DNA of 44,253 bases, taken from Rotaria sp. (lineage: Eukaryota). Of the stretch, positions 18,534-31,700 are shown piece after piece. Position numbers and translations under genes: made by a program. Within the stretch, counting starts at the first letter, position 1. Every line of letters begins with the position of its first letter. The stretch is from positions 4,268,656 to 4,312,908 of the forward strand of contig CAJNOF010000004.1 of the NCBI GenBank assembly GCA_905250055.1. Direction: 5' to 3'. Under the pieces are notes generated by a model. The model made no database searches. It saw only the letters and a program-made list of their open reading frames with translations, and was not told where the DNA came from.

Positions 18534-19111
18534 CCCTTTGGTTACGGATCACACATATACTGTATGTGTATTGAACTTTTCCTTGGACTACTTCTGTTAC
18601 AGTTATGACTTTACTGCTTTAACTAAGTGCACAATAGCATGGCTTTTTATACTCTATATTGTACGACAATTCCTCTACATATCTTTGTTTTGGTCTGTTC
18701 TACGGAAGTCATACTTCATGGCAAAGTCAAAACCTGTCAGTTCTCAAGAGAGAGTGATACAATGCCGAGTGCTACTAAGGAAAAATACTTTATTCATAAA
18801 CTAGAAGACATTTGCTCATGAGGCATAATACAACACTCCTGAGACATCACCTGAAATGCTATCGCAGCAAATACGCTAATTGTAGTACCCTAACACTACC
18901 CTGATTGTACTCTTGTCCATTACAGGCTAATGGTGAAAGGAGAGCTATCTTGTAGAATTCCATCACTTAGTTATATTATAAAAGTGCTCTGGTACTATCA
19001 GAATTGTAACGTCATTATATAGTCTTACCATACATCGACATATCCTATGTGAAGCATTTTTCATAGAAATCGAAAATTTTCTTTTCCTAGAAAAATCCCG
19101 TAACCAAAGGG
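18534..19111. mobile_element. Non-autonomous piggyBac-like MITE, 578 bp. It has 14-15-bp perfect terminal inverted repeats (CCCTTTGGTTACGG ... CCGTAACCAAAGGG) and is flanked by TTAA target-site duplications at 18530-18533 and 19112-19115.
   Basis: TIRs and the TTAA duplication are read directly from the sequence. TTAA insertion with CCC...GGG termini is the piggyBac-superfamily hallmark (established knowledge). There is no intact transposase ORF inside, only short ORFs. Confidence 0.6.
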
Positions 19112-19830
19112 TTAACAGATCAAGCATTTAACGTCTATTTTTCTTCAAAATGTGGATCTCGAAGCCAGCACGTTCAATAGAGCTGGGACTTTGTGCACAG
19201 ATTGAGGATAGACAATTTATACGCTAGAAATTTTCCAGCTTCATGTCTTTTTAGCTAGCGGAAGGTCAATTAATTTCAGTATATGTAATGGTAGGCATTT
19301 GGCATCTATCGTATCTCCAAGTGCATTCAACTACCTTAAGATATAAAGACAATTCTCGTTTTTTTACTTTAAAGAAAACACTTGAGACTTGCAACTGTTG
19401 TTGCCCTTTTTTTGCTTTGCTTCTTTTTCGTACTCGTTTGATTGAGTATTCGATCGAAATCGTGAGGAAAAAATGCGCAATTCTACTTAAATAGCGAACT
19501 TTTGAAGGAAAGTAACAAGTAAGAAAAAGATTTTTTTCTATGTTTAAACCTTTTAAAAAAAAAGGATTACGAGAGTCGTTGGACCGAAGCATGAACTTTC
19601 GGATAAAAAAAAAGATTTAATTTTGTTTCGTATTGGAACAAAAAGCTTCTGGAGACGCATCACCGACCATATGATTCGAAATAAAAATGAAAAACATTTT
19701 CTGCCTTTACTAAAAAAAAGCTGTTAGTGTACTTCCTGTGGGATTAAAATGTGAAACATGATTCATCTACTTATTCAAAATAAAGGACACTATAATGTCT
19801 GTGAGAGTCTGGAATAAGGATCAAATTTGC

Positions 19831-20018
19831 TACCTTTATACTTCAAAATTCGTTTTAGATTGTGTTTCACAAAAATACTGTAATGTTGGTATGGTCTACG
19901 ATAGTCTCTGATTCATGTGTGTGTCACGGTCTGTGTGGGGCGAGGACGAGAGGTTCAGGTCTAGATTTTCTACTTTTTTACTTCAGTATTTCTTCTAGAT
20001 TGTGTTTCACAAAAAGCC
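19831..20018. repeat. Tandem duplication: a roughly 140-bp unit, with copies beginning about 19831 and 19970, sharing 'ctactttt(a/t)tacttca...tagattgtgtttcacaaaaa' and separated by a short GC-richer stretch.
   Basis: The 20-mer tagattgtgtttcacaaaaa occurs at 19856-19875 and 19996-20015, with conserved upstream context. Confidence 0.5.
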
Positions 20019-22782
20019 TGTCTTTTTCAGTAGTGGATGACGGAAATGATCAAAATTTTGGCGCGAAAAAAATCGATGTTGATGTAAAAATTATATTGTT
20101 GTTAAAGTATAGCATGATTGAGACTATAATCATCAGCGTTTATCTGAGTTTTCATTTTTTGGAGATATTGATTTTTTCTGTTGAAGAGGCTTCAGAAAAA
20201 CAATACATGAATGGGATACATACACATAAGAATAATGCGATGCACCTTCGTCTCTAAAAGAAGACTAACATCCTTTCCGTTTCATGTTACAATTGATAGA
20301 AAAATTAAGACACAAGAGTAATAAATTACTCCACTGGACTTTCCAAATTTTGAAGACGATTTCATAGGGCTCCATAAGACGAGAGTCTGTTGTTTCTCTT
20401 CTGGTCTAGTGTCTTTTGAGTCCGATAAAAATATCTTAGGTTCAAAAAAGTATTTTGTATGTTGTAAGTCTGGAACAGGAATACTACTGTGGGGGCGAAT
20501 TGAATTTATCGCCTTCGTATTTTTTTTTGTTTTTATCACTGTAGTCTTTTTATATATTAATTCATTACTATATATAGAGCAAGAAAATCCGAAACGTGCT
20601 GTATCTTTTGGTATATTTATATTGAATATCAAATGCAGTTTAAGGTGTAAAAAACGTACTAGAAAAAAAAGTAACATATTATTTTTACTACAATGTATAT
20701 TGCAAATTCAGTGACGGTATGGATGCAACTGTGAAGGTCAGGATGGATGTGAATGAATGTACGTAAGGGTATGGGCGTATTTGGATGCGAATGTGAGTGT
20801 GGAATGAATATAAAATAATCTCAACCCCAGTCACACATACACCGACACTCATAGGGTGTTGGTGTAAGTGATTGAAGAAGAATAGCTGCAACTACACCCA
20901 CAGATTAAAATAGTCGCTTTAAAATTGTGCAGAATCTTGGAATTCAAACCTGCTTAAGTCCAATATTCAAAATCATACAGTACCATCTGAAAACACGTTT
21001 TTCTCTTCATAATTGACAGTTGAATATGGTATAACACATAAGGAGTATGAAAATTAGTAACAATTATTTAATTTCTTTCAATATATATGTGAATTGTTAT
21101 TGCCGTTACTGTTTTCTCTAACTAAAATGACAATAAGAAAAGCTCTTCAAGATTAAGGGTGATGTCAAGGATTGGTAGCATATGTAACGCATCATATTCT
21201 AATATATTGGAGCATATTCTCTGTATTATTTTGCAATTTTATCTGCTTCATATCAACAAGTATATCAAGCACTTCTTCGGGTAAATATTTCTAGTTTTTT
21301 ATACTAAAAGTACAACATTATATTAAAACACAAAGCAGCATATGAAAATACAAAGTATGCTGTTTGGTACTTAACGAGAGTTGCCTATTTGTATTTTTGT
21401 AAAATTAATTAAACTCTAACGTAAATTACAAATAATTTAATTTGAAAATAATTTTAGTATGTTTTTATTATTAGTTTACTTTATTTTAATTACGAATTCT
21501 GATAATTTAAACTAAAAATAGATTTAAATTACATAATTTTAGTTTATGTTAAAGTTCATATAGCGAAAATTAAAATTAAAATAGACTTCAACTATAATGC
21601 GAAAAAAAATTACTTTTTTTGAAATATAGGTTATTTTTAATTTATTTGTGTACTTAATTTCTTTTCAATATAAAATAGCTTCTCTGAAATACCAGCAATT
21701 AGAGGATCTTTTTTGAAAAAATAAAACTAATTCTAAATTAGTCTCGTTCAACTTTATCTCTCTAATTTTGTATACTATGATAGAAATTTTTTATTTATAC
21801 AAAACTTGGTAAAATTCGAAGTAAAATTGTGTTAAATAGCATCTCAGAATGTTTATTGATATGTAGAAGTTAATCACTTGATCGTACAATTCAATCGGCT
21901 AAATGACAGGTAAGAAACATATTATATGCATGTTTGAATCTAACCTTCATCCTTACATATTTCAATTTAGATTAGTCCGGACCAGACCAGTGTATAAGAC
22001 TACAACTCCTCGTATGCAGCGTCATGGACTCCCACACTTTTTTTTATTTACAAATGTTTTTGGACGGACCTCAAGGATTGTACAACATGCCTAGTCCTTT
22101 TCTCACAAAAGACTAGACGAGACGTGCCGTTATGACAAGAACAGCGACTAGTCTTTTTACCCGTCCTTTGTTCATCTGGGTAAGATGTAAAATATTTAGT
22201 CGTAGTCAATAAAGGAACATCACCTTTCATGATCTCAATGAAGTTTGGACTATTTCCTTTTTAGATAATAGCTTTAACTTTTCACTACATAACTGTATAT
22301 TTCAACCAATTATCTATACATGTATTTGTATCAACAGCATAAATTTACAGAGAAAGATCAAAACTTTTGGATAACCCTTTATTAAGACTGTTACTCATAG
22401 TTATCACTATAATTAATAGCCTAATATCAAATATGTATCTGCACTTTCTCTCTTGCTTTAGATTCCCATTTGTTATATATACATGATCTCAGAGTCGTCT
22501 CATCCATCTAAATTGTATGATAAAAATACATGTCCTTTATAATCTAAGCATATACAAAGGTTGTTATCAGAAAAAATAAACAAATAGCTTAATTCTACTT
22601 GTAACATTTTAAAAATGTTTAGCTCAAATCGATAACTATAAAATGATTTGTATCTTCATCACACTGATAATTTTTAAATATTCTACTATTTTGTCGAGTT
22701 TTTCTTATCAAACACTAATTTCCTTTTTTTTTGCGCAGTAAAGAAAATTTTCTGTTATTTCGATTTAATGTTGTATTTTTAA

Positions 22783-23531
22783 ATGAATAATAATCCTAAT
22801 TCTAATGAAGTACCTGAACAAATAAATCTGTCTAATCGAATAACAACATCAAAAATTCTTGAAAAAAAAGAAGTTCTTATATTACATCAAGTTCCTATTC
22901 AACTTCATACAGCTCAACAAGAAATAAATAATTTACGTCTTTTAAATATTTGTCTTCAATCAACATTAATTCGTGTTCAAACTCAATTAACTGAATATTT
23001 ACCAGTTAATATTCATGATGAAATAAAACGAAATGAAACAAAACAAAAATTAATTTCATTACGTCAAATCGATGATCAAAGTCGACGAATTATTCATCCA
23101 CAACAAATATCTTTTTTTCAAATAATTAATAATTTTAAAAATTTATTAGATATTAAACAAAAACAAGAACCATTTAATAATAAAGATATTCCATTATCGA
23201 AAAATGAAAAACAAATTGATATTTTATATGAAATGTTTCATGAACTTAATACTATAATACATACAGAACATCATGATAGAATTTGTCAACTTTATATTAC
23301 ATTAGCTGAAACATCTCATTCAGTAAATCAAGCACGGGAAAGTAAAATTCTTTTTTTCTTTTCTTTTTTTTTTTTTGAAACTATTTTCTTATAGTTCTAC
23401 ATCATACAATTCATGCACATAAAATCATTACACGACGAAAAATTAAACGAAAAATAATTTTCATATTAATTGCATGTACATTCATTTCAATATTTATATT
23501 TATAATTATTATATCTATTCAAATACATTAA
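22783..23531 (+). CDS. 2-exon gene encoding a tail-anchored coiled-coil protein of about 233 aa, possibly SNARE/syntaxin-like. Model: join(22783..23341, 23395..23531).
   Basis: ORF from ATG 22783 (MNNNPNSNEV...SHSVNQARE). Phase-1 donor A|gtaaaatt at 23342; acceptor ttcttatag at 23394. Exon 2 encodes ILHHTIHAHKIITRRKIKRKIIFILIACTFISIFIFIIIISIQIH*, a basic juxtamembrane stretch plus a single C-terminal TM helix 2 residues from the stop. The preceding heptad region (IDILYEMFHELNTIIHTEHHDRI) loosely resembles a syntaxin SNARE motif ([23 protein letters not shown]). Identity is inferred and not firm. Confidence 0.55.
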
Positions 23532-24195
23532 AATTCTGTCTGTTTTTCATTTCGATACATTTTTATTAATTGTATAATATTCATAATTAGACTAAGAAGA
23601 ATAAAGATAATACCAATAATTACAATAATTATAACACCAGACATCAATTGTTATAATGCGCGCGTTTATTTGAAAACATTCATTATAATGTTACGTTTAT
23701 CTTGCTATAAATGAAACACCTTTACGAATTAAAATAATTCGTGTTTGTGGGTATGGATATATTGGATATTTGACAACTTGAAAAAAAAAAGAAACAATAT
23801 AATAGGTGACCGAAAAGTAACTAGACAAAATATTCATTCATTTTTCAGTGTGTTTAAGAAACCTGCAGAACTTGGAAACTATTCAATTTTGTAGAGAAAC
23901 GGTTTCTATTTCATTCACTATATTTAAAATAATTTTTGCTTCTATTTTCAGTAATTTTTTGGTGCGCTGAAGTTCGCTCAAACTCAATTTATAAATCTCT
24001 ACAAGATTACCTCACATCACTTAAACTATCATTCCTAGAAGAATTTTGAACTCATATTTGAAATATGACATAAAATTCTTATTTTAATCTAATATTTTCG
24101 AATTTCTGCAGATGAAAAATTAACATTCTATCTAGTTACTTTCTGAAGATTCGTTATGCAAGAGGAATTAAATTTTTGAGTTCTACTTACATTTG

Positions 24196-25039
24196 ATATT
24201 TTTTAAAATAAGAAGCCATTTCTCGTTTGCATCTGATACATGAAACTAAAAAAGATGTTTTCTTTCTGTTTCTCAAGGATTTCTTAATGATCATTAGACT
24301 TACACGAGAACCAATGGGATGATTAAAACTTCCACCGTGTATACGAACGAATTCTTCAACTATATTTGTTAATGATCGCTCACTAGATTGATTAAAACAA
24401 TTGAGAAAACGACGTAAAAGACCAGTTCTAAATACTTTCTTGGTAAAATCATGACTTATTTAAAAAAATTCTTGTATACCTTCGATGTATTGATAACCAA
24501 ATCTCCGAGATCCATGACTGATCAGTAGTAGATATTTGAACAAGATTATTATCGTATAAATGATCTTGACCTTTGATTGCTAAATTTTGATTGACAACAT
24601 CGTTGCCTATTAGATAATAATAAATCAATAATTCACAAAAAAATTTTTTAAATTTCTATTTACCGAATTCTTGTTGGTCAGCACAATCAAAATAGATATC
24701 TTGTAAATAAAATAAAGAATTTTTATCATAAAATAATCAACTAACCTGTTTCATCATTAATTGAATCTTTTTCTTTAAAAAAAAACAACAAATATTAATC
24801 CAATTTCATTATCAATCAATGACACTGACCGATATTATTTTCGAGCCATTGTTGTAAAATCTGAATATGTTTATTGATTTCTTGTTTTTGATATTCAATA
24901 GGATAAGTTTGATAAGATTGATAATCACGATAGATTATTAAGCGATTATTTTGTTCACCTTGAAGGATTCAAAAAAAAAAAATTAGAAATTTTACTGTTG
25001 AAATTCACGACGAAATTCATTAGCAATATATTTGTTCAT
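24196..25039 (-). CDS. Uncharacterised multi-exon gene on the minus strand; 5' and 3' ends are uncertain. Clear internal exons: 24480..24606, 24304..24454, plus small exons around 24664-24700, 24737-24763 and 24831-24963.
   Basis: Spliced translation: ...EQNNRLIIYRDYQSYQTYPIEYQKQEINKHIQILQQWLENNI / EKDSINDET / DIYFDCADQQEF / GNDVVNQNLAIKGQDHLYDNNLVQISTTDQSWISEIWLSIHR / SHDFTKKVFRTGLLRRFLNCFNQSSERSLTNIVEEFVRIHGGSFNHPIGSR, then the strong donor gtaagtc. Junction phases are consistent (gtcagtg, gttagt, gtaaatag and gtataca donors; ttttaaag, tttacaag, ctaatag and aaataag acceptors). The putative start MNKYIANEFRR at 25039 needs a weak GTGAAT donor. There is no confident family assignment; the 'hGGS' motif could hint at a nucleotidyltransferase fold, but that is weak. 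Confidence 0.4.
24304..24454 (-). CDS. Exon of the uncharacterised gene.
   Basis: (S)HDFTKKVFRTGLLRRFLNCFNQSSERSLTNIVEEFVRIHGGSFNHPIGSR; acceptor aaataag; donor gtaagtc. Confidence 0.45.
24480..24606 (-). CDS. Exon of the uncharacterised gene.
   Basis: GNDVVNQNLAIKGQDHLYDNNLVQISTTDQSWISEIWLSIHR; acceptor tctaatag; donor gtatacaag. Confidence 0.45.
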
Positions 25040-25425
25040 GCAATTCTATACTTCTACATACTTACAATACATATTGAAAATGAATGAGATTATAAGAGGC
25101 CTTATTATCTTTTTTGCGTATATATCTATATTATAAACTAAACATCAAATGCATGTATACACATTGTAAATTATGTTCTCTTATCTATCATTATAATAGA
25201 ACAGTGCAAAAAAAAAAATTATAATCTTGATATATGAATACTCTATTCTTTCGTCTTTTCTTTCGTAACAAAAAAGTTAATTCTTTCTTTTTTCATTAAA
25301 ATACAATTTTTTTTTTCATACAAATGAATAACTTGATTTATATGAAAGTGTTTCTACTTCATCTAGTTCTTCATCAATATCTATTGATTTGATTGTTGTT
25401 ATATGTCTAAAATTATCATTTGGTA

Positions 25426-27314
25426 TTAATTTTGCTGTGAATAAGCGATTGTATCGTTTAGTAGATGGCTGAATATCACATCAAATGAATTTTCTCGTTG
25501 TAATTTTCTATTGAAATTCATATGATATAAATATGGCGAACTAATGGGTCTATCAGATGTTCTTATATCGTTCAATTCTTCATTTTCATAATTCCAAAAT
25601 TGAGGAGCATCAATCAATTGTATATGATTAAATTTTTCATAATCGAATCCACTTAATGTAGAATTACATGGTGAAAATTGATAACCCCATAAAAGTTCAT
25701 TAGGTAAATAAGATGTACGAAAATGACATCAAAAACCAGTATAATCAAAAGAACCTTCAATAATAGCAATGATTTCAAAATGTTATTTTTCTAATGTTGA
25801 TTGTTGTATACCATAAAGTGGACTACGTGAATTAATAATATGTTCAACAATAGTTGGTTGAGGAAAAAATAATTGATCATTACGTAAGTGTGGTAATTCC
25901 ATATCATAGATTTGATGAGGAATTATTTCACCTTCAAGTGTTCGTCGCTGACGAATCATTAGTAAACGAACACTAGCAAATATCAATTAAGAAGTTGATA
26001 AGTTAACTATAAAAAAAAAGAAAAAGAAATGAATCTTTCTTTTATAATGGTTTATTTGACATACCTATTCGAAATGTTAATGGTAATTGATTATTTCGTG
26101 GGGCAATGAGCGGATAATTACTGAATATAATAAATTGGGATTTTTCTAAAAATATACAAAAAATATTCATTTATTATCATCAATCAAACAAACTAACAAA
26201 AATAATATTCTTTCATTATGGAATATTTCTAGAAGACCTTGATGGTTTACAATCTATTCTGAAATTATTCATAGAATTAGTTCAGCTTTGAATTTAATTA
26301 ATGAAATTTACTTTTATTTTGTTAAGTATCAGAAAAAAGAATAACCTTCGCCTGTAGGTCGTGATAATTTAGTAAAAACAATTTGTGTGACAATAACTTG
26401 TAATAAATATTCAAGTAATGATTGAAGAGTTCATACAAGTATACCACCCATACATTCTGTTGTTATATATCTTGAACCATAACCAATTGTATGTTGTGTT
26501 TCAATAGAAAAAAGTAATGCACTTAAAAAATCATGTACAGGGTTGCCAAAAATGTTTTGCCCGGGGGATACAGCTCCAATGACAAATGATATCAATATTG
26601 AATTTGATACAAAATGGAAGCCCGTCAAGAATGGGGTTTATCCATACGAATGAATAAGGGCTATAAAGACTTTTCTCTATCAAACTTTGATAATTTCTAA
26701 AACTCCATGAACTATAGTCATAGCAAAACTATCCTTTATCATAGAGAACTCAAACTATTCCTGATATAAAATTACTAAACATAGAAAGGTTATCCTTACT
26801 TTTTATGGCTTAATGAATGATACAAAATAAAGGTAACTTTGCTAGATTCAGTATTTTTATATCAGAAGTAGTCTGAGTTCTTTATGATAAAGGATAGTTT
26901 TGCTATGACTATGGTTCATGGAGTTTTGGAAATTTTCAAAGTTTGATAGAGGAAAGTCTTTATAGCCCTTATTCATTCGTATGAATAAACCCCATTCTTG
27001 ACGGGCTTCCATTTGGTATCAAATTCAATATTGATATCATTTGCCATTGGAGCTGTACCCACGGAGCAAAACATTTTTGGCAACCCTGTACATCTTGAAC
27101 ACATTTTTTTTGTTCTATTTTCAAATATTGTCGTGTATAATTTGTTTGATTATCTAATAAAACTTGTTCATCATCGTTTAAAACAATATATCCATGTTCA
27201 ATTGAAATAAGAACATAAAGTGAGGAAAAGAAAAACCAACCTAATATAAAACCAAACAAAACAAATATTAATACAAGCCACCAGTAGAGGGCTGTAGATT
27301 GCTCTATTTTGACA
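25426..27314 (-). pseudogene. Inward-rectifier K+ channel (Kir/KCNJ family) gene copy that appears disabled. Recognisable segments: M1 helix (27092..27313), pore helix/selectivity filter + M2 (26346..26530), cytoplasmic C-terminal domain exons (about 26061..26146, and 25426..25972).
   Basis: The minus-strand translation is collinear with Kir2/Kir6 sequences. Segments: (i) LYWWLVLIFVLFGFILGWFFFSSLYVLISIEHGYIV...KKCVQ (M1); (ii) [62 protein letters not shown] (pore TIGYG + M2); (iii) EKSQFIIFSNYPLIAPRNNQLPLTFRIG; (iv) IVRLLMIRQRRTLEGEIIPHQIYDMELPHLRNDQLFFPQPTIVEHIINSRSPLYGIQQSTLEK*HFEIIAIIEGSFDYTGF*CHFRTSYLPNELLWGYQFSPCNSTLSGFDYEKFNHIQLIDAPQFWNYENEELND... There are three in-frame stops at aligned, normally coding positions: TGA 26431-26433, TAA 25783-25785 and TGA 25729-25731. 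A 560-bp hairpin interrupts the M1-pore exon. The conserved N-terminal cytoplasmic segment (…RFV.K.G.CNV.F…IFTT.VD.KWR) could not be found; the sequence upstream of M1 is the ctgccctgccctg repeat instead. Confidence 0.65.
26531..27090. repeat. 560-bp long hairpin / foldback element. The two roughly 225-bp arms (26531..26760 and 26870..27090, about 93-95% identical as reverse complements) flank a partly palindromic roughly 110-bp centre.
   Basis: The left arm 'atgtacagggttgccaaaaatgttttgcccgggggatacagctccaatgacaaatg...' is the reverse complement of the right arm '...catttgccattggagctgtacccacggagcaaaacatttttggcaaccctgtacat'. The boundaries fall exactly inside Kir coding sequence: right flank ...KKCVQ / left flank [13 protein letters not shown].... 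Confidence 0.8.
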
Positions 27315-27375
27315 ACCTGACTCTGCCCTGCCCTGCAAGTTTTTGTTATGTACCCTGTTCTGCCCTGCCCTGTTT
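27280..27375. repeat. Copy A of a GC-rich 'caccagtagag / ctgccctgccctg / taccctgtt' repeat family.
   Basis: caccagtagagggc...ctgccctgccctgcaag...gtaccctgttctgccctgccctg. Related motifs recur at 28555-28735. Confidence 0.5.
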
Positions 27376-27562
27376 TCTTTAAAACTAAAGAAAATTCCAA
27401 ACTTTCGTATTAACTCATTATACAATTTCATTTCGATTTGTTACAACCATGAAGCAAAAAACAACAACATTATGTATCTCGAAAATTTCTAATCACGAAA
27501 ATATCATCAACAATATCTGAATTTAAAAACTATCTTTTTTTTCTAATATTCGATCTGATGAA

Positions 27563-27763
27563 CTAAAACATACTCCGATATGGGTATGCATCTTCTCTTC
27601 GTACCCGCACCCTATCAAGAGTTTTGTTGTTTTTTAGTGTATTTGATTCATCTAAACAATTTTTAAAATGATAGCTACTAGTAGAAGTTTCGTTTGATAT
27701 GGAATATGATAATATCTCATGACACAATCGACATTTTACAAATGGTGAATATACATTATTCAA
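27563..27763 (-). other. ORF fragment with a BED-type zinc-finger-like spacing (C-x2-C-x17-H-x3-C): ...SPFVKCRLCHEILSYSISNETSTSSYHFKNCL.... Possible remnant of a hAT-like transposase N-terminus.
   Basis: 66-aa ORF in the track; the adjacent upstream frame (27764-27960) is interrupted by a stop. It lies between the two repeat copies A and B. Motif spacing only, so weak. Confidence 0.2.
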
Positions 27764-28204
27764 ACGTTTAACACGTAATAAATGTTCCTAAAATGAACCA
27801 TGAGATGATAATGGCGGTTCTACTATAGCTATAAATTCATCAGTTTTAAGTTTTTCTATCACCCACTTCTTTTTTCGTTCTATATCTTTTTTTGAATTAA
27901 ACATAGTTGATATTTCACTAGCAGAAAAATCTAACCGATATTGATGATGATATTTGAGAGATTAGTTAATGATGATAATGAAGAAAAGATCAAGATAAAA
28001 GTCAAAATAAGAAAACTAAATGCAAACTTGAGTAACCATATAATGTATAATGGATAGATTACCGACATATTTGCTTCTATTAAATATCTTTGCGACCAAT
28101 CTAAATTGATTGTTCAGTTCACTTTCACTTCTATTTTTTTTCTTAATGTATAAATTTAGAAAAGATGTTGACAATATCTAGCGCATAAAAATCGTCACAG
28201 GTTG

Positions 28205-28503
28205 ACAGCACATGTAAAAAAATGGATTAAGAATCAGATTAAAAATCGATTATAATGGCACTATTATAATCTGATTTTAATCAGATTTTTCAGCTTTAAA
28301 ATACAGATTTTATTTGATTTTGATTTTTTTTATATCTATTTTAATCGATTATTATAGTAATTGTAGGTAATTGGTTAAAATAGATTAAAAGAAAATCAAA
28401 ATCAAATAAAAACTGTCTTTTAAAGCTGAAAAATCTGATTGAAACCAGATTATAATAGTGCCATTATAATCGATTTTTAATCTGATTCATAATGCAAATT
28501 TTT
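28205..28503. mobile_element. Foldback / MITE-like element of about 300 bp. It is a near-perfect palindrome: arms of about 125 bp around a short AT-rich centre (28320-28380), with ends catgtaaaaaa...ttttttacatag.
   Basis: Left arm 'atggattaagaatcagattaaaaatcgattataatggcactattataatctgattttaatcagatttttcagctttaaaatacag...'. Right arm '...ctgtcttttaaagctgaaaaatctgattgaaaccagattataatagtgccattataatcgatttttaatctgattcataatgc' is its reverse complement. Confidence 0.75.
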
Positions 28504-28554
28504 TACATAGGAGGTCACGATACTCGTACTCTGCAGCCTTTCCTGTAAAAATTT

Positions 28555-28735
28555 TCATAACCCGGCACTGCCCTGCCCTGTCAGGGCAGTGCAGGTTATC
28601 TATACCCTGTTGGGCTCTAGTCACCAGTAGAGCCTATCGGGTCCGGGTATGGTCGGGGTCTGAAGATTTTTTTTCGAGCGGATCTGGGTCCGGGTCTAAA
28701 ACTTTTTGCACCCGATGGGCTCTACCCACAAAATA
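28555..28735. repeat. Copy B of the GC-rich repeat family. It contains a perfect 10-bp-stem hairpin (cactgccctg-ccctgt-cagggcagtg), a 15-bp inverted repeat (tagagcctatcgggt / acccgatgggctcta) and the direct repeat gggtccgggt x2.
   Basis: Read directly. It shares ctgccctgccctg, taccctgtt and caccagtagag with copy A (27280-27375). Confidence 0.5.
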
Positions 28736-31700
28736 TCAATCACCCAATATATATTCGTCTGTTCTGTTTTATCTTACAGTTGGTTTTTCGTTCATGATTG
28801 ACATTTTGTATTATGAAAAGGTCTGATCATAAAATGATATTCAGTCATCCTTCTGTTCATTGTTAATATAAAGCACCTAAAGTTTTTTCTTTTTATTTTA
28901 TCCTCTCTATTATTAAATTTGGAAGTGCATACGATGAATATCATAAGCGTTCATAACTGTTTGATTATACGACTGCATATTGTTATAGTGCATACAGAAT
29001 CATAGACAAACGAAAAAAATTGATTCACAATATAGCATGACTGGTGAATAAAATATGATGAGAATATGCAACTTAGGAATGAAACCAGGAAAAACTGGAA
29101 AGAAGACAAACGAACGAAAAAAAAAGCGGTTACAGTAAAGAGAAGAGAGAGAGAGAATAACAAACACAAGCGCGCCAAGTTTTACATGGATAAATAGTCA
29201 ACGCACAAAAGAAGCAGTGATTGATGCCTTGCATGTATATGTTACACTTGTTTCATTCGAAAGAAATGTAGTGGCGTAATCAGGGATGTGCTAGGCTCGC
29301 CACTGCTCTACCAGCAGAAGAAAAAAAGACTATAATAATTATCCTTATTGACGCTATATTTCATGAATTTTCTCCAAGATAATGGAGCATTGTCCTACCA
29401 TTCAAGATCTTCTGTTTATACCACTAAAGAAATGTCCAAAAGACTCATTCTTTTTACTCTTATGAAATAAATCTTAATTAAGCATATTACTAAAAAAACT
29501 ATTGACCGAGTTAAATAACGTATCTAATCACAACGACATACTCCTAATTTTAATTTTCTCAATGTAACTATCGCAACTGATTTCCAAACATCGGAATACT
29601 TGTGTTTTCTCAACTAAGTATTGAAACAGCGTATGAAACAACTTATATAATTCTGTCAAAGCTATTTGTTCATAACATTGAATAGTCTTGATGATGACAA
29701 AGAAAGTATATTTCCTTTGCTTATTTTGGTAAACATAAAATTAAACTTTTGGATATTCTACTTGATCTCACAACCGTATTGAGTTGTGTTCAATCTGCAA
29801 CTATGAGTAGAGGATGTGGCAATGATCGTTCGAGACATATTTTACTCTTGTACACAGATAAAAATAATATTGATCCTTGAATAAAATAGTCATTACAGAC
29901 AGCGTCGGGTGCGGTTACTGAGAACATGGATAGTGAAGGTTGTACTATTGCAATGCTCTGATCATGTACAGAAGCAGTACTACTGAGAATTTTTTCTTTT
30001 TCTTTCCATTGTATAAGTCGTTGTTTTAAAGCAACAAAAAAGCCTACGTAATTCACATACTATTTATCGATATTGTTCTCTCTATTCGTTTCCTTCATCC
30101 AAAAATCTTTTAAGAACATGAGAATAGTTTCATACAGTTTCCAACTCACATTAAAAAACATTTTATTCTTATCAAAACCAACATTTTCACAAATAATCAT
30201 TACTGGTGAGAGATCACTAGTGCCAGTCTTCACAATCTCTTCTCGTGCACCTTCTACATTTGTAAACATTAAATCAATGTTTCTTTTCGAATGTTTAGTA
30301 GAATGTGACGTTGATGGAATGTAATAACGATTGTTTTTATTCTACACATCCTTTTCAAACTTCTATCTCTTTTATGGGTACATTACAATCAACAATGATG
30401 ATTGTATTTTCAATGATGTATGATTGTAAATTTCCTAAATCTTCTACTCTGTACTGGCGGTCAATAAATAGCAATTGTTCGAATTGTTTGACTGAGCCCA
30501 GTACAAGCTGTTCAAACAAAATACTAAATTGAGCTATTCGATATGCATTTCACAGATTATCAACTTCTGTAAATACAAAAATTAGAGACATTCATTTTAT
30601 GACGAACGTTCTGACAGAAAAGAATCAAAGAGAGTTGTTCTTTTAACAGAGAGATATTTTTACATTGCATCAGGATATTTTCTTAAAAATCTGCCATAAT
30701 CATTCTGCAAAAACTTTGTCTACTTGTTTCTGATCTTTTTGTCTAGAAGCCTGATTGACAAAACTGTTTTATTGTTGAGAACAGAAAAAAAATATATGGC
30801 ATCTACCCTCCATTTAGAAAACATAGTACTTATGGAAATGCTCATCTTTGAATAATAATTATTATTTCGTGTGTTGACAGTTTTTTTCGACCGATGCAAT
30901 GAAGAGAGACATAGAAATGGCGATGTATGCTGCTGTTGATCTCTCCATCCGGCAATATTAAGACTGTCATCATCGATTAGACTAAATCATTAAGTAATAA
31001 TTCAAGTGTAGGCAGTAGTTGTAATTTAATATTCAGAGCTATTTGATTGATTTTCATATTGATACGATCTAAGTTTTTATCCATACAAGACGTAGTCTTT
31101 ACCATATTGAACATGTTTTGTTTGATTAATAATAACATTTTGGTTGTATCTTCATTAGTTATTGTTCATGATTGTAATAGAGCAAATATGAAACAATAAT
31201 CGATGCAATTGTCTTGATGATATTGCACTTTCAACTTATTATTTTAAATTTAACGTGTATGTAGCTTTTCTACATTCACTAAATAAAGAATGATGATAGT
31301 CATCATGTTAGATACGAAGAACTATATTTGAAAGCTCATGTGTTTGATTATCAATAAGAGTATAGTATATTATATGATTGCCGATCAGAAAAAGTATGAT
31401 AGTAGAGAATGTATTTTCAACTATTGTGATATTGATATTAGTGATTTGAAATGACTATTTATTTGTAGACATAAATATTTTGTATGAGTCAGTTTTTTGT
31501 TTACATACTACTCATATGACTGATGAGTGAAAATGCGACCGATATTTTTTGCTATTTGAACTATTCTTCAAATAATGTTTAAAATCTGCATGTTTCAACC
31601 GCTTAAATGGAAGACAATACGATTAATATTCTAATAATTCCTATCGTAGTTAAGCATATTGTGGATTATTAGTCGATAGATATATAGAGTCAGTAACTAT

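Follow-up and report, generated by a model that had tools for sequence, protein, structure and literature searches.

The stretch of Rotaria sp. DNA analysed here, 44,253 nucleotides of contig CAJNOF010000004.1 (GenBank assembly GCA_905250055.1; hereafter the window), has about 29% G+C and carries the coding sequence of an inward-rectifier K+ (Kir) channel on the minus strand at 25316–27283, as read from its translation with the exons assembled by hand. For profile and structure searches, the stop codons in this conceptual protein were masked as X. The IRK profile (PF01007) matches with E = 1.2e-25 (90.4 bits against a cut-off of 22.7) over profile positions 34–141 of 141, which comprise M1, the pore helix and M2, and the first 33 profile positions have no counterpart in the window. 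The IRK_C profile (PF17655) matches over positions 1–170 of 174 (E = 5.9e-40). Furthermore, the protein aligns end to end with the solved structures of Kir3.2, Kir6.1, Kir2.x and KirBac (E down to 3e-47), and the selectivity filter TIGYG, encoded at 26476–26490, aligns to the filters of Kir3.2 and Kir6.1. An earlier note, made from the letters of this DNA, had recognised a Kir channel by its M1, pore helix with TIGYG, M2 and beta-rich cytoplasmic domain, had described it as collinear with Kir2 and Kir6, and had proposed an alignment to PF01007. The profile matches bear out the identity, and the solved Kir2, Kir3 and Kir6 structures confirm the collinearity. In a large protein database, the closest proteins are all from bdelloid rotifers (Rotaria, Adineta and Didymodactylos; 64–88% identity), headed by P0001 of Rotaria sp. 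Silwood-2 at 88%. A scan of both strands of the whole window at Rfam gathering thresholds matched no RNA family.

The same locus is found in four assemblies of Rotaria sp. Silwood-1 (L001–L004), which we compared with the window column by column. On one side of the locus they are 98.6–99.2% identical to the window, over as much as 12.8 kb, and on the other side 93–97%; the window is therefore from Rotaria sp. 'Silwood-1' or from something extremely close to it. The Silwood-1 assemblies represent single wild-caught individuals together with one 10x assembly, and degenerate tetraploidy has been reported for all bdelloids (PMC7943196). Below, the orthologous loci of Silwood-2 and R. socialis are L005 and L006, and L008, L009 and L011 hold an intact duplicate of the gene, which we refer to as the B copy; the window, Silwood-2 and R. 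socialis genes are the A copies. The coding sequence in the window is laid out as follows.

27089–27283, minus strand: proximal part of exon 1, encoding the M1 helix and the extracellular turret to ...KKCVQDV; its edge at 27283 (ortholog residue 65) is where similarity to intact orthologs abruptly sets in
26346–26535, minus strand: distal part of exon 1, encoding the pore helix, TIGYG and the M2 helix; contains the stop TGA 26431–26433
26146–26345, minus strand: intron 1, 200 nt, GT...AG kept, at the same position as in intact homologs
26065–26145, minus strand: exon 2, 81 nt, of equal length in all intact homologs examined
26007–26064, minus strand: intron 2, 58 nt, GT...AG kept, likewise at its position in intact homologs
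25316–26006, minus strand: exon 3, encoding the cytoplasmic IRK_C domain and the C-terminal tail; contains three stops and a 2-nt insertion

Exon 2 likewise measures 81 nt in L005, L006, L008, L009 and L011, and residues 1–192 of the Silwood-2 and R. socialis orthologs are encoded by a single exon. The length of intron 1 varies among the A copies, from 78 nt in R. socialis through 200 nt in the window to 437 nt in Silwood-2, and is about 1.1–1.5 kb in the B copy. Within M2, the bdelloid Kir clade has a Gln (...YLLQVIVTQ...; window ~26400) at the position aligned with an Asn of Kir6.1 and Kir3.2. This is the position that we take to be the 'rectification controller', D172 in Kir2.1, and the Gln hints that the functional bdelloid relatives may be weak rectifiers.

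The reading frame is interrupted by four stop codons, each a one-base change from the homologous codon. They are given here with the residues found in 16 bdelloid homologs.

26431–26433, minus strand, exon 1: TGA in place of Leu (TTA in L002, L003 and all homologs; TTA>TGA)
25987–25989, minus strand, exon 3: TAA in place of a Gln invariant in the 16 homologs (CAA>TAA)
25783–25785, minus strand, exon 3: TAA in place of E, with D or Q in a few homologs (GAA>TAA)
25729–25731, minus strand, exon 3: TGA in place of S, with P or A in two homologs (TCA>TGA; TCA in L001–L004)

Three of these, TGA 26431–26433, TAA 25783–25785 and TGA 25729–25731, had been noticed earlier and lie exactly where they were reported, in aligned coding columns. 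The count of three was nevertheless one too low, as the stop at the invariant Gln had been missed. Also missed were a transposable element within exon 1, described below, and an insertion of two nucleotides (TG) at 25479–25480 that shifts the frame in exon 3. On account of this insertion, the TAA at 25426–25428, at which the locus had been taken to end, is a stop created by the frameshift and not the true end of the gene. Without the two bases, the C-terminal tail of the family ('...NRL..I.SIDIDEE...') is restored and leads to the ancestral stop, TGA 25316–25318. Four stops in 419 Kir codons compare with none in the 1794 codons of two nearby long TEP1 open reading frames (904 and 890 codons; Fisher p = 0.0013), in DNA in which ~8% of random codons would be stops. 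That introns do not remove the stops had also been proposed. All four lie in exon sequence aligned to intact proteins, and the homologs carry introns at the same positions as the window; hence introns cannot rescue the frame. An alternative acceptor (...TTTGCTAG) by which the stop at 25987–25989 might be skipped is out of frame.

Exon 1 is split between the turret and the pore helix by a foldback miniature inverted-repeat transposable element (MITE).

26538–27088, no strand assigned: foldback MITE, 551 bp, in exon 1 between the turret (...KKCVQDV) and the pore helix; terminal inverted repeat CAGGGTTGCCAAAAATG

The dinucleotide TA is duplicated around the element (27089–27090 and 26536–26537) within a palindromic target, ATG-TA-CAT (insertion site ATGTACAT), and the MITE together with the duplicated TA adds 553 bases to the exon, shifting the frame. 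The filled site reads ...GATG TA [CAGGG...CCCTG] TA CATG..., and the empty site, present in L001–L004 and in the Silwood-2 ortholog L005, reads ...GATGTACATG... with a single TA. The alignment of the window with L001–L004 breaks exactly at the element. By a repeat finder, the arms are 274 nt long (26533–26806 and 26820–27093) and 91% complementary around a 13-nt loop, and they take in 5 nt of the palindromic target beyond either end of the element. As single-stranded DNA, the 555-nt hairpin has a predicted folding energy of −240 kcal/mol (z = −46). The sequence is unrelated to Kir and has no coding capacity. We considered whether the element might be spliced out and rejected this by inspection: removal between the sole surrounding GT...AG pair (GTACAGG...TTTTTTAAG) leaves the wrong frame and a stop within seven codons.

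Within the window, the terminus CAGGGTTGCCAAAAATG occurs at the two ends of the MITE only, and no further copy of the element was found in the window and L001–L012 (related sequence totalling ~120 kb). Among metagenome contigs, a scan yielded four AT-rich ones that match the outer ~100 nt of the element at 82–93% identity, one of them with a complete copy of 211 bp. TA precedes all five of the five family termini on these contigs, and their flanks are otherwise unrelated. No transposase-bearing copy of the family was recovered, the 887-aa open reading frame of L015 being unrelated. The terminus of the MITE, CAGGGTTGCCAAAAA..., resembles what we take to be Tc1-type ends, CAGTGCTGGCCAAAAA... The TA duplication and this terminal sequence, with the small size and the multiple copies, point to a Tc1/mariner-type (Stowaway-like) MITE of foldback architecture. 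Like Stowaway-like MITEs, it has a TA target-site duplication, is non-coding, short (551 bp) and multi-copy, and varies in internal length; unlike them, and like foldback elements, it consists almost entirely of its inverted repeats. MITEs make up a minor and largely unclassified share of bdelloid repeats (PMC7943196).

The 5' end of the gene has been lost as well. The absence of the N-terminal cytoplasmic segment had been pointed out before, and homology to intact orthologs indeed begins only at residue 65. At the nucleotide level, homology between the window and the Silwood-2 locus ends abruptly at 27283 (ortholog codon 65) and resumes at 28745, the equivalent of a point ~160 bp ahead of the ATG in the Silwood-2 ortholog. 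The intervening sequence contains the following features.

27284–28744, no strand assigned: lineage-specific replacement, about 1.46 kb, in place of ~350 bp of ancestral promoter-proximal region, ATG and codons 1–64
27563–27763, minus strand: remnant of a BED zinc-finger open reading frame, 66 aa (PF02892, E = 1.8e-4, just over the gathering score)
28216–28503, no strand assigned: second foldback repeat, with 136-nt arms, 90% complementary, and a 16-nt loop; sequence unrelated to the Kir-exon MITE
28627–28725, no strand assigned: small inverted-repeat element of about 99 bp with 16-nt termini GTAGAGCC.ATCGGGT, inside the replacement

The replacement is common to all Silwood-1 loci and absent from the orthologous loci of Silwood-2 and R. 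socialis. A tblastn search of the 44-kb window with seven homologs (word size 2, E up to 10) found no N-terminal exon elsewhere, with no match before ortholog residue 34 and only weak similarity before residue 65. As to the origin of the replacement, only the BED remnant and the nested inverted repeats could be recognised in it, with no clear element boundaries or target-site duplication. The BED zinc-finger reading frame may be a hAT-type transposon remnant or a captured fragment. Relative to all Silwood-1 loci, the window carries 37 extra bases at 27336–27372, and a 14-nt repeat on their flanks indicates a slippage- or microhomology-type event. The second foldback repeat is present in the Silwood-1 loci; L004 ends inside it and L001 ceases to match the window at it, so the repeat marks a breakpoint, either of assembly or structural. 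Next to the small inverted-repeat element, at 28562–28595, lies a palindrome (CTGCCCTG/CAGGGCAG) that resembles two abutting transposon ends. The replacement also carries CAGGGCAGGGCAG repeats, and a 30-mer ending in CTGCCCTGCCCTG is present in three direct copies, within 27306–27372 and 28551–28580.

Comparison with the sister assemblies divides the lesions into those common to every Silwood-1 sequence examined and those confined to some of them.

Both TAA stops: present in the window, in L001/L004 and in L002/L003
5' replacement: present in the window, in L001/L004 and in L002/L003
Codon 26431–26433: TGA in the window and in L001/L004, TTA in L002/L003
Codon 25729–25731: TGA in the window, TCA in L001/L004 and in L002/L003
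2-nt insertion 25479–25480: present in the window, absent from L001/L004 and L002/L003
37-nt indel 27336–27372: present in the window, absent from L001/L004 and L002/L003
MITE: present in the window, absent from L001/L004 and L002/L003
One more A in the A-run at 27112, shifting the frame: absent from the window, present in L001/L004 and in L002/L003

Over 7.7 kb (window 18800–26535), L001 and L004 agree with the window at 51 variable sites and with L002 at 44, the two kinds of site being interleaved, and have almost no private differences. The simplest reading of this pattern is that two real haplotypes exist, one window-like and one L002-like, and that L001 and L004 would be collapsed or mosaic assemblies or products of gene conversion. 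We consider it possible, though we hold this only tentatively, that a single dead duplicate is decaying independently, with haplotype-specific lesions, on two homologous chromosomes of an anciently asexual bdelloid. If so, the MITE, being present in some sequences and absent from others, would be evidence that DNA transposons have moved recently within Rotaria sp. Silwood-1, and the locus could serve as a small natural marker of transposon activity in an asexual lineage and of whether homologues diverge or undergo gene conversion.

The surroundings of the gene identify the kind of pseudogene it is. LIS1, TMEM127 and Kir follow one another in the same order in the window, L005 (Silwood-2), L006 (R. 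socialis) and L009 (the duplicate block), and in L008 and L010 a TMEM127 neighbour is seen beside the duplicate. With this synteny and the intron positions both retained, the window gene is an unprocessed pseudogene and not a retrocopy. The existence of an intact paralogue elsewhere in the genome, which the earlier note had wished to see checked, was established by finding the duplicate P0010. This protein of 434 aa is 73% identical to the window Kir and is intact, in a collinear block, in three Silwood-1 assemblies, one of which (GCA_905331515.1) holds both the intact duplicate (L008) and the pseudogene locus L001. Between the window and P0010 synonymous divergence is ~0.54, a value in keeping with ohnologous pairs in a degenerate tetraploid. 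In Silwood-2, the ortholog of the dead copy is uninterrupted throughout the 375 codons present on its contig.

Beside the intact members of the bdelloid Kir clade (P0001 and P0010), the window gene shares the succession of M1, pore helix, TIGYG and M2, the beta-rich cytoplasmic domain, the three-exon structure and the LIS1–TMEM127 neighbourhood. It differs from them in having no start codon or N-terminal cytoplasmic segment, in its four stops, frameshift and 553-bp insert, and in 12 substitutions at positions that are invariant in the clade; as it stands, it cannot encode a channel. These 12 changes fall in 141 columns invariant among 16 homologs, and the other 15 Rotaria and Adineta proteins have 0–4 such changes each; examples are D>Y in HGDF, G>E in SLGYLL, G>D and R>Q. 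When substitutions were polarised with three outgroups, 37 fell on the window branch (23 replacements, 4 stops and 10 synonymous changes) and 17 on the ortholog branch (12 replacements and 5 synonymous changes; binomial p = 0.009), about twice as many on the former. The pairwise ratio of nonsynonymous to synonymous divergence (dN/dS, or omega) is 0.50 between the window and the Silwood-2 ortholog; for intact pairs it is 0.27 (the Silwood-1/Silwood-2 pair of the duplicate) and 0.18 (against R. socialis). On the window branch omega is ~0.6–0.7, as would be expected if the gene had been under constraint for the smaller part of the time since Silwood-1 and Silwood-2 split and had evolved neutrally from then on.

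Taken together, these observations make us highly confident that the locus is an unprocessed Kir pseudogene, one of two ohnologous copies, that no longer functions as a channel and is probably decaying neutrally in situ. The sequence of events would have been as follows. After the split from Silwood-2, the copy would have lost its 5' end by a repeat-associated replacement and, in the same period, gained the two TAA stops. As these lesions are common to every Silwood-1 sequence examined, the gene probably died after the Silwood-1/Silwood-2 split and before the Silwood-1 sequences diverged from one another. Later lesions would then have been added separately in each haplotype: the two TGA stops, the 2-nt frameshift, the 37-nt indel and the Tc1/mariner-type hairpin MITE at a TA in the window haplotype, and the frameshifting extra A in the haplotype of L002/L003 instead. 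The intact duplicate P0010, in its paralogous LIS1–TMEM127–Kir block, presumably covers the channel function, and we infer that the dead copy is not expressed. The locus was proposed earlier to be a likely recent pseudogene, and that proposal is strengthened by the shared stops, the additional lesions and the intact duplicate. 'Recent' is a fair description in relative terms, given that no stop interrupts the Silwood-2 ortholog up to the end of its contig and that its protein and the remnant still share 88% identity. The locus resembles other unprocessed pseudogenes that follow whole-genome duplication in that one member of a collinear pair is dead and the other intact, introns and synteny are kept, disabling mutations have built up, and the substitution rate is raised. 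It differs from them in nothing essential, the haplotype- or individual-specific secondary lesions, including the polymorphic MITE, being an addition.

Several points weigh against this account or parts of it. Relative to synonymous changes, nonsynonymous ones are no more frequent in the window branch (27:10) than in that of Silwood-2 (12:5; Fisher p = 1.0, with too few counts to tell the branches apart). The evidence from omega is therefore weak, and relaxed constraint may extend to the open Silwood-2 copy. That copy is visible to residue 375 only, where its contig ends. The distribution of lesions across L001–L004 is not tree-like, and collapsed assembly or gene conversion could be at work, so independent decay on two homologues is something that we infer. 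Lastly, a transcribed remnant may persist at the locus.

Of three other explanations, the least improbable is that the locus yields a truncated functional product, whether a stand-alone IRK_C fragment, a chimeric protein like the annotated P0034, or a regulatory RNA or hairpin source of small RNA. The public annotation does place P0034 and two IRK models of 137 and 113 aa here, the splice signals of both introns are intact, and the 555-nt hairpin is predicted to be very stable. Against these stand the three stops and the frameshift in the IRK_C region itself. The P0034 model requires an invented intron that deletes a conserved strand, fuses the remnant to an unrelated downstream gene and is broken, on the window haplotype, even by TGA 25729–25731. 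Moreover, the MITE sequence has nothing to do with Kir, and the lesions differ between haplotypes, as expected without selection. We regard a truncated product as improbable.

Still less probable is that the gene is intact in the animal and that the stops, the frameshift and the hairpin insert are sequencing or assembly errors. Some lesions do invite this suspicion: the 2-nt insertion, TGA 25729–25731 and the MITE are seen in the window only, the A-run at 27112 differs in length at an error-prone kind of site, and assemblies of these genomes do break at hairpin repeats. Four independent Silwood-1 assemblies, on the other hand, all have the two TAA stops and the truncated 5' end, so the shared lesions are not base-calling errors. 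TGA 26431–26433 recurs in two of these assemblies, the MITE belongs to a multi-copy family and is flanked by a perfect TA duplication where the clean empty site has a single TA, and the flanking TEP1 reading frames of ~900 codons are open. The earlier judgement that poor base-calling is unlikely is thereby upheld. Least credible of all, in our view, is a functional gene read through a non-standard code (TGA as Trp, Sec or Cys; TAA as Gln) or by programmed readthrough. Its appeal is that two of the four stops are TGA and that all four lie inside otherwise well-aligned coding sequence. However, no one consistent reassignment would yield L, Q, E and S, the residues of the homologs at the four sites, and the neighbouring 1794 codons, in reading frames of 904 and 890 codons, are free of in-frame stops. 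Recoding would also leave the 553-bp insertion, the 2-nt frameshift and the missing start and N-terminus uncured. At the TGA sites, sister sequences have TTA and TCA, both sense codons, and there is therefore no codon reassignment; the earlier note had thought one worth checking for but had seen no other sign of it in the window. Bdelloid nuclear genes are not known to depart from the standard code.

The Kir pseudogene matters chiefly as a correction to the public annotation of Silwood-1. P0034 (381 aa), encoded on the L001–L004 contigs, is nearly identical to the C-terminal part of the window translation. Its model is a chimera (window 24449–25986) that starts inside pseudogene exon 3 and is fused to the unrelated downstream gene; it skips TAA 25783–25785 by the invented intron, which deletes the conserved 'HFEIIAIIEG' strand. 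The IRK fragments of 137 and 113 aa are annotated separately, upstream of P0034. These models are annotation artefacts, and the public Silwood-1 models at this locus deserve a pseudogene flag. Loss of one redundant duplicate is the expected fate in a degenerate tetraploid and will not surprise a specialist, and the understanding of Kir channels, genetic codes and bdelloid genome biology is unchanged. The locus nevertheless shows cleanly, and in a datable way, the loss of a gene in an asexual animal that is a degenerate tetraploid: one copy is open in Silwood-2 to the contig end and dead in Silwood-1, and its duplicate is intact. It also documents in Rotaria a polymorphic, TA-targeting family of hairpin MITEs that disrupts exons and breaks short-read assemblies.

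A truncated model of the Silwood-2 ortholog (P0054) raised the question of whether that gene is dying too. This was ruled out, since the model is cut short where a foldback MITE in intron 1 interrupts the assemblies: three Silwood-2 assemblies end inside this MITE, and in one it is followed by a scaffold gap. The element is a different hairpin MITE (terminus GTCGTAGGACAGATTGAAATTCAG) that is polymorphic in intron 1 of the intact Silwood-2 Kir ortholog: it is seen at ~5950–6131 of L017 and at the ends of L018, L019 and L020, and its empty site lies at ~10949 of L005.

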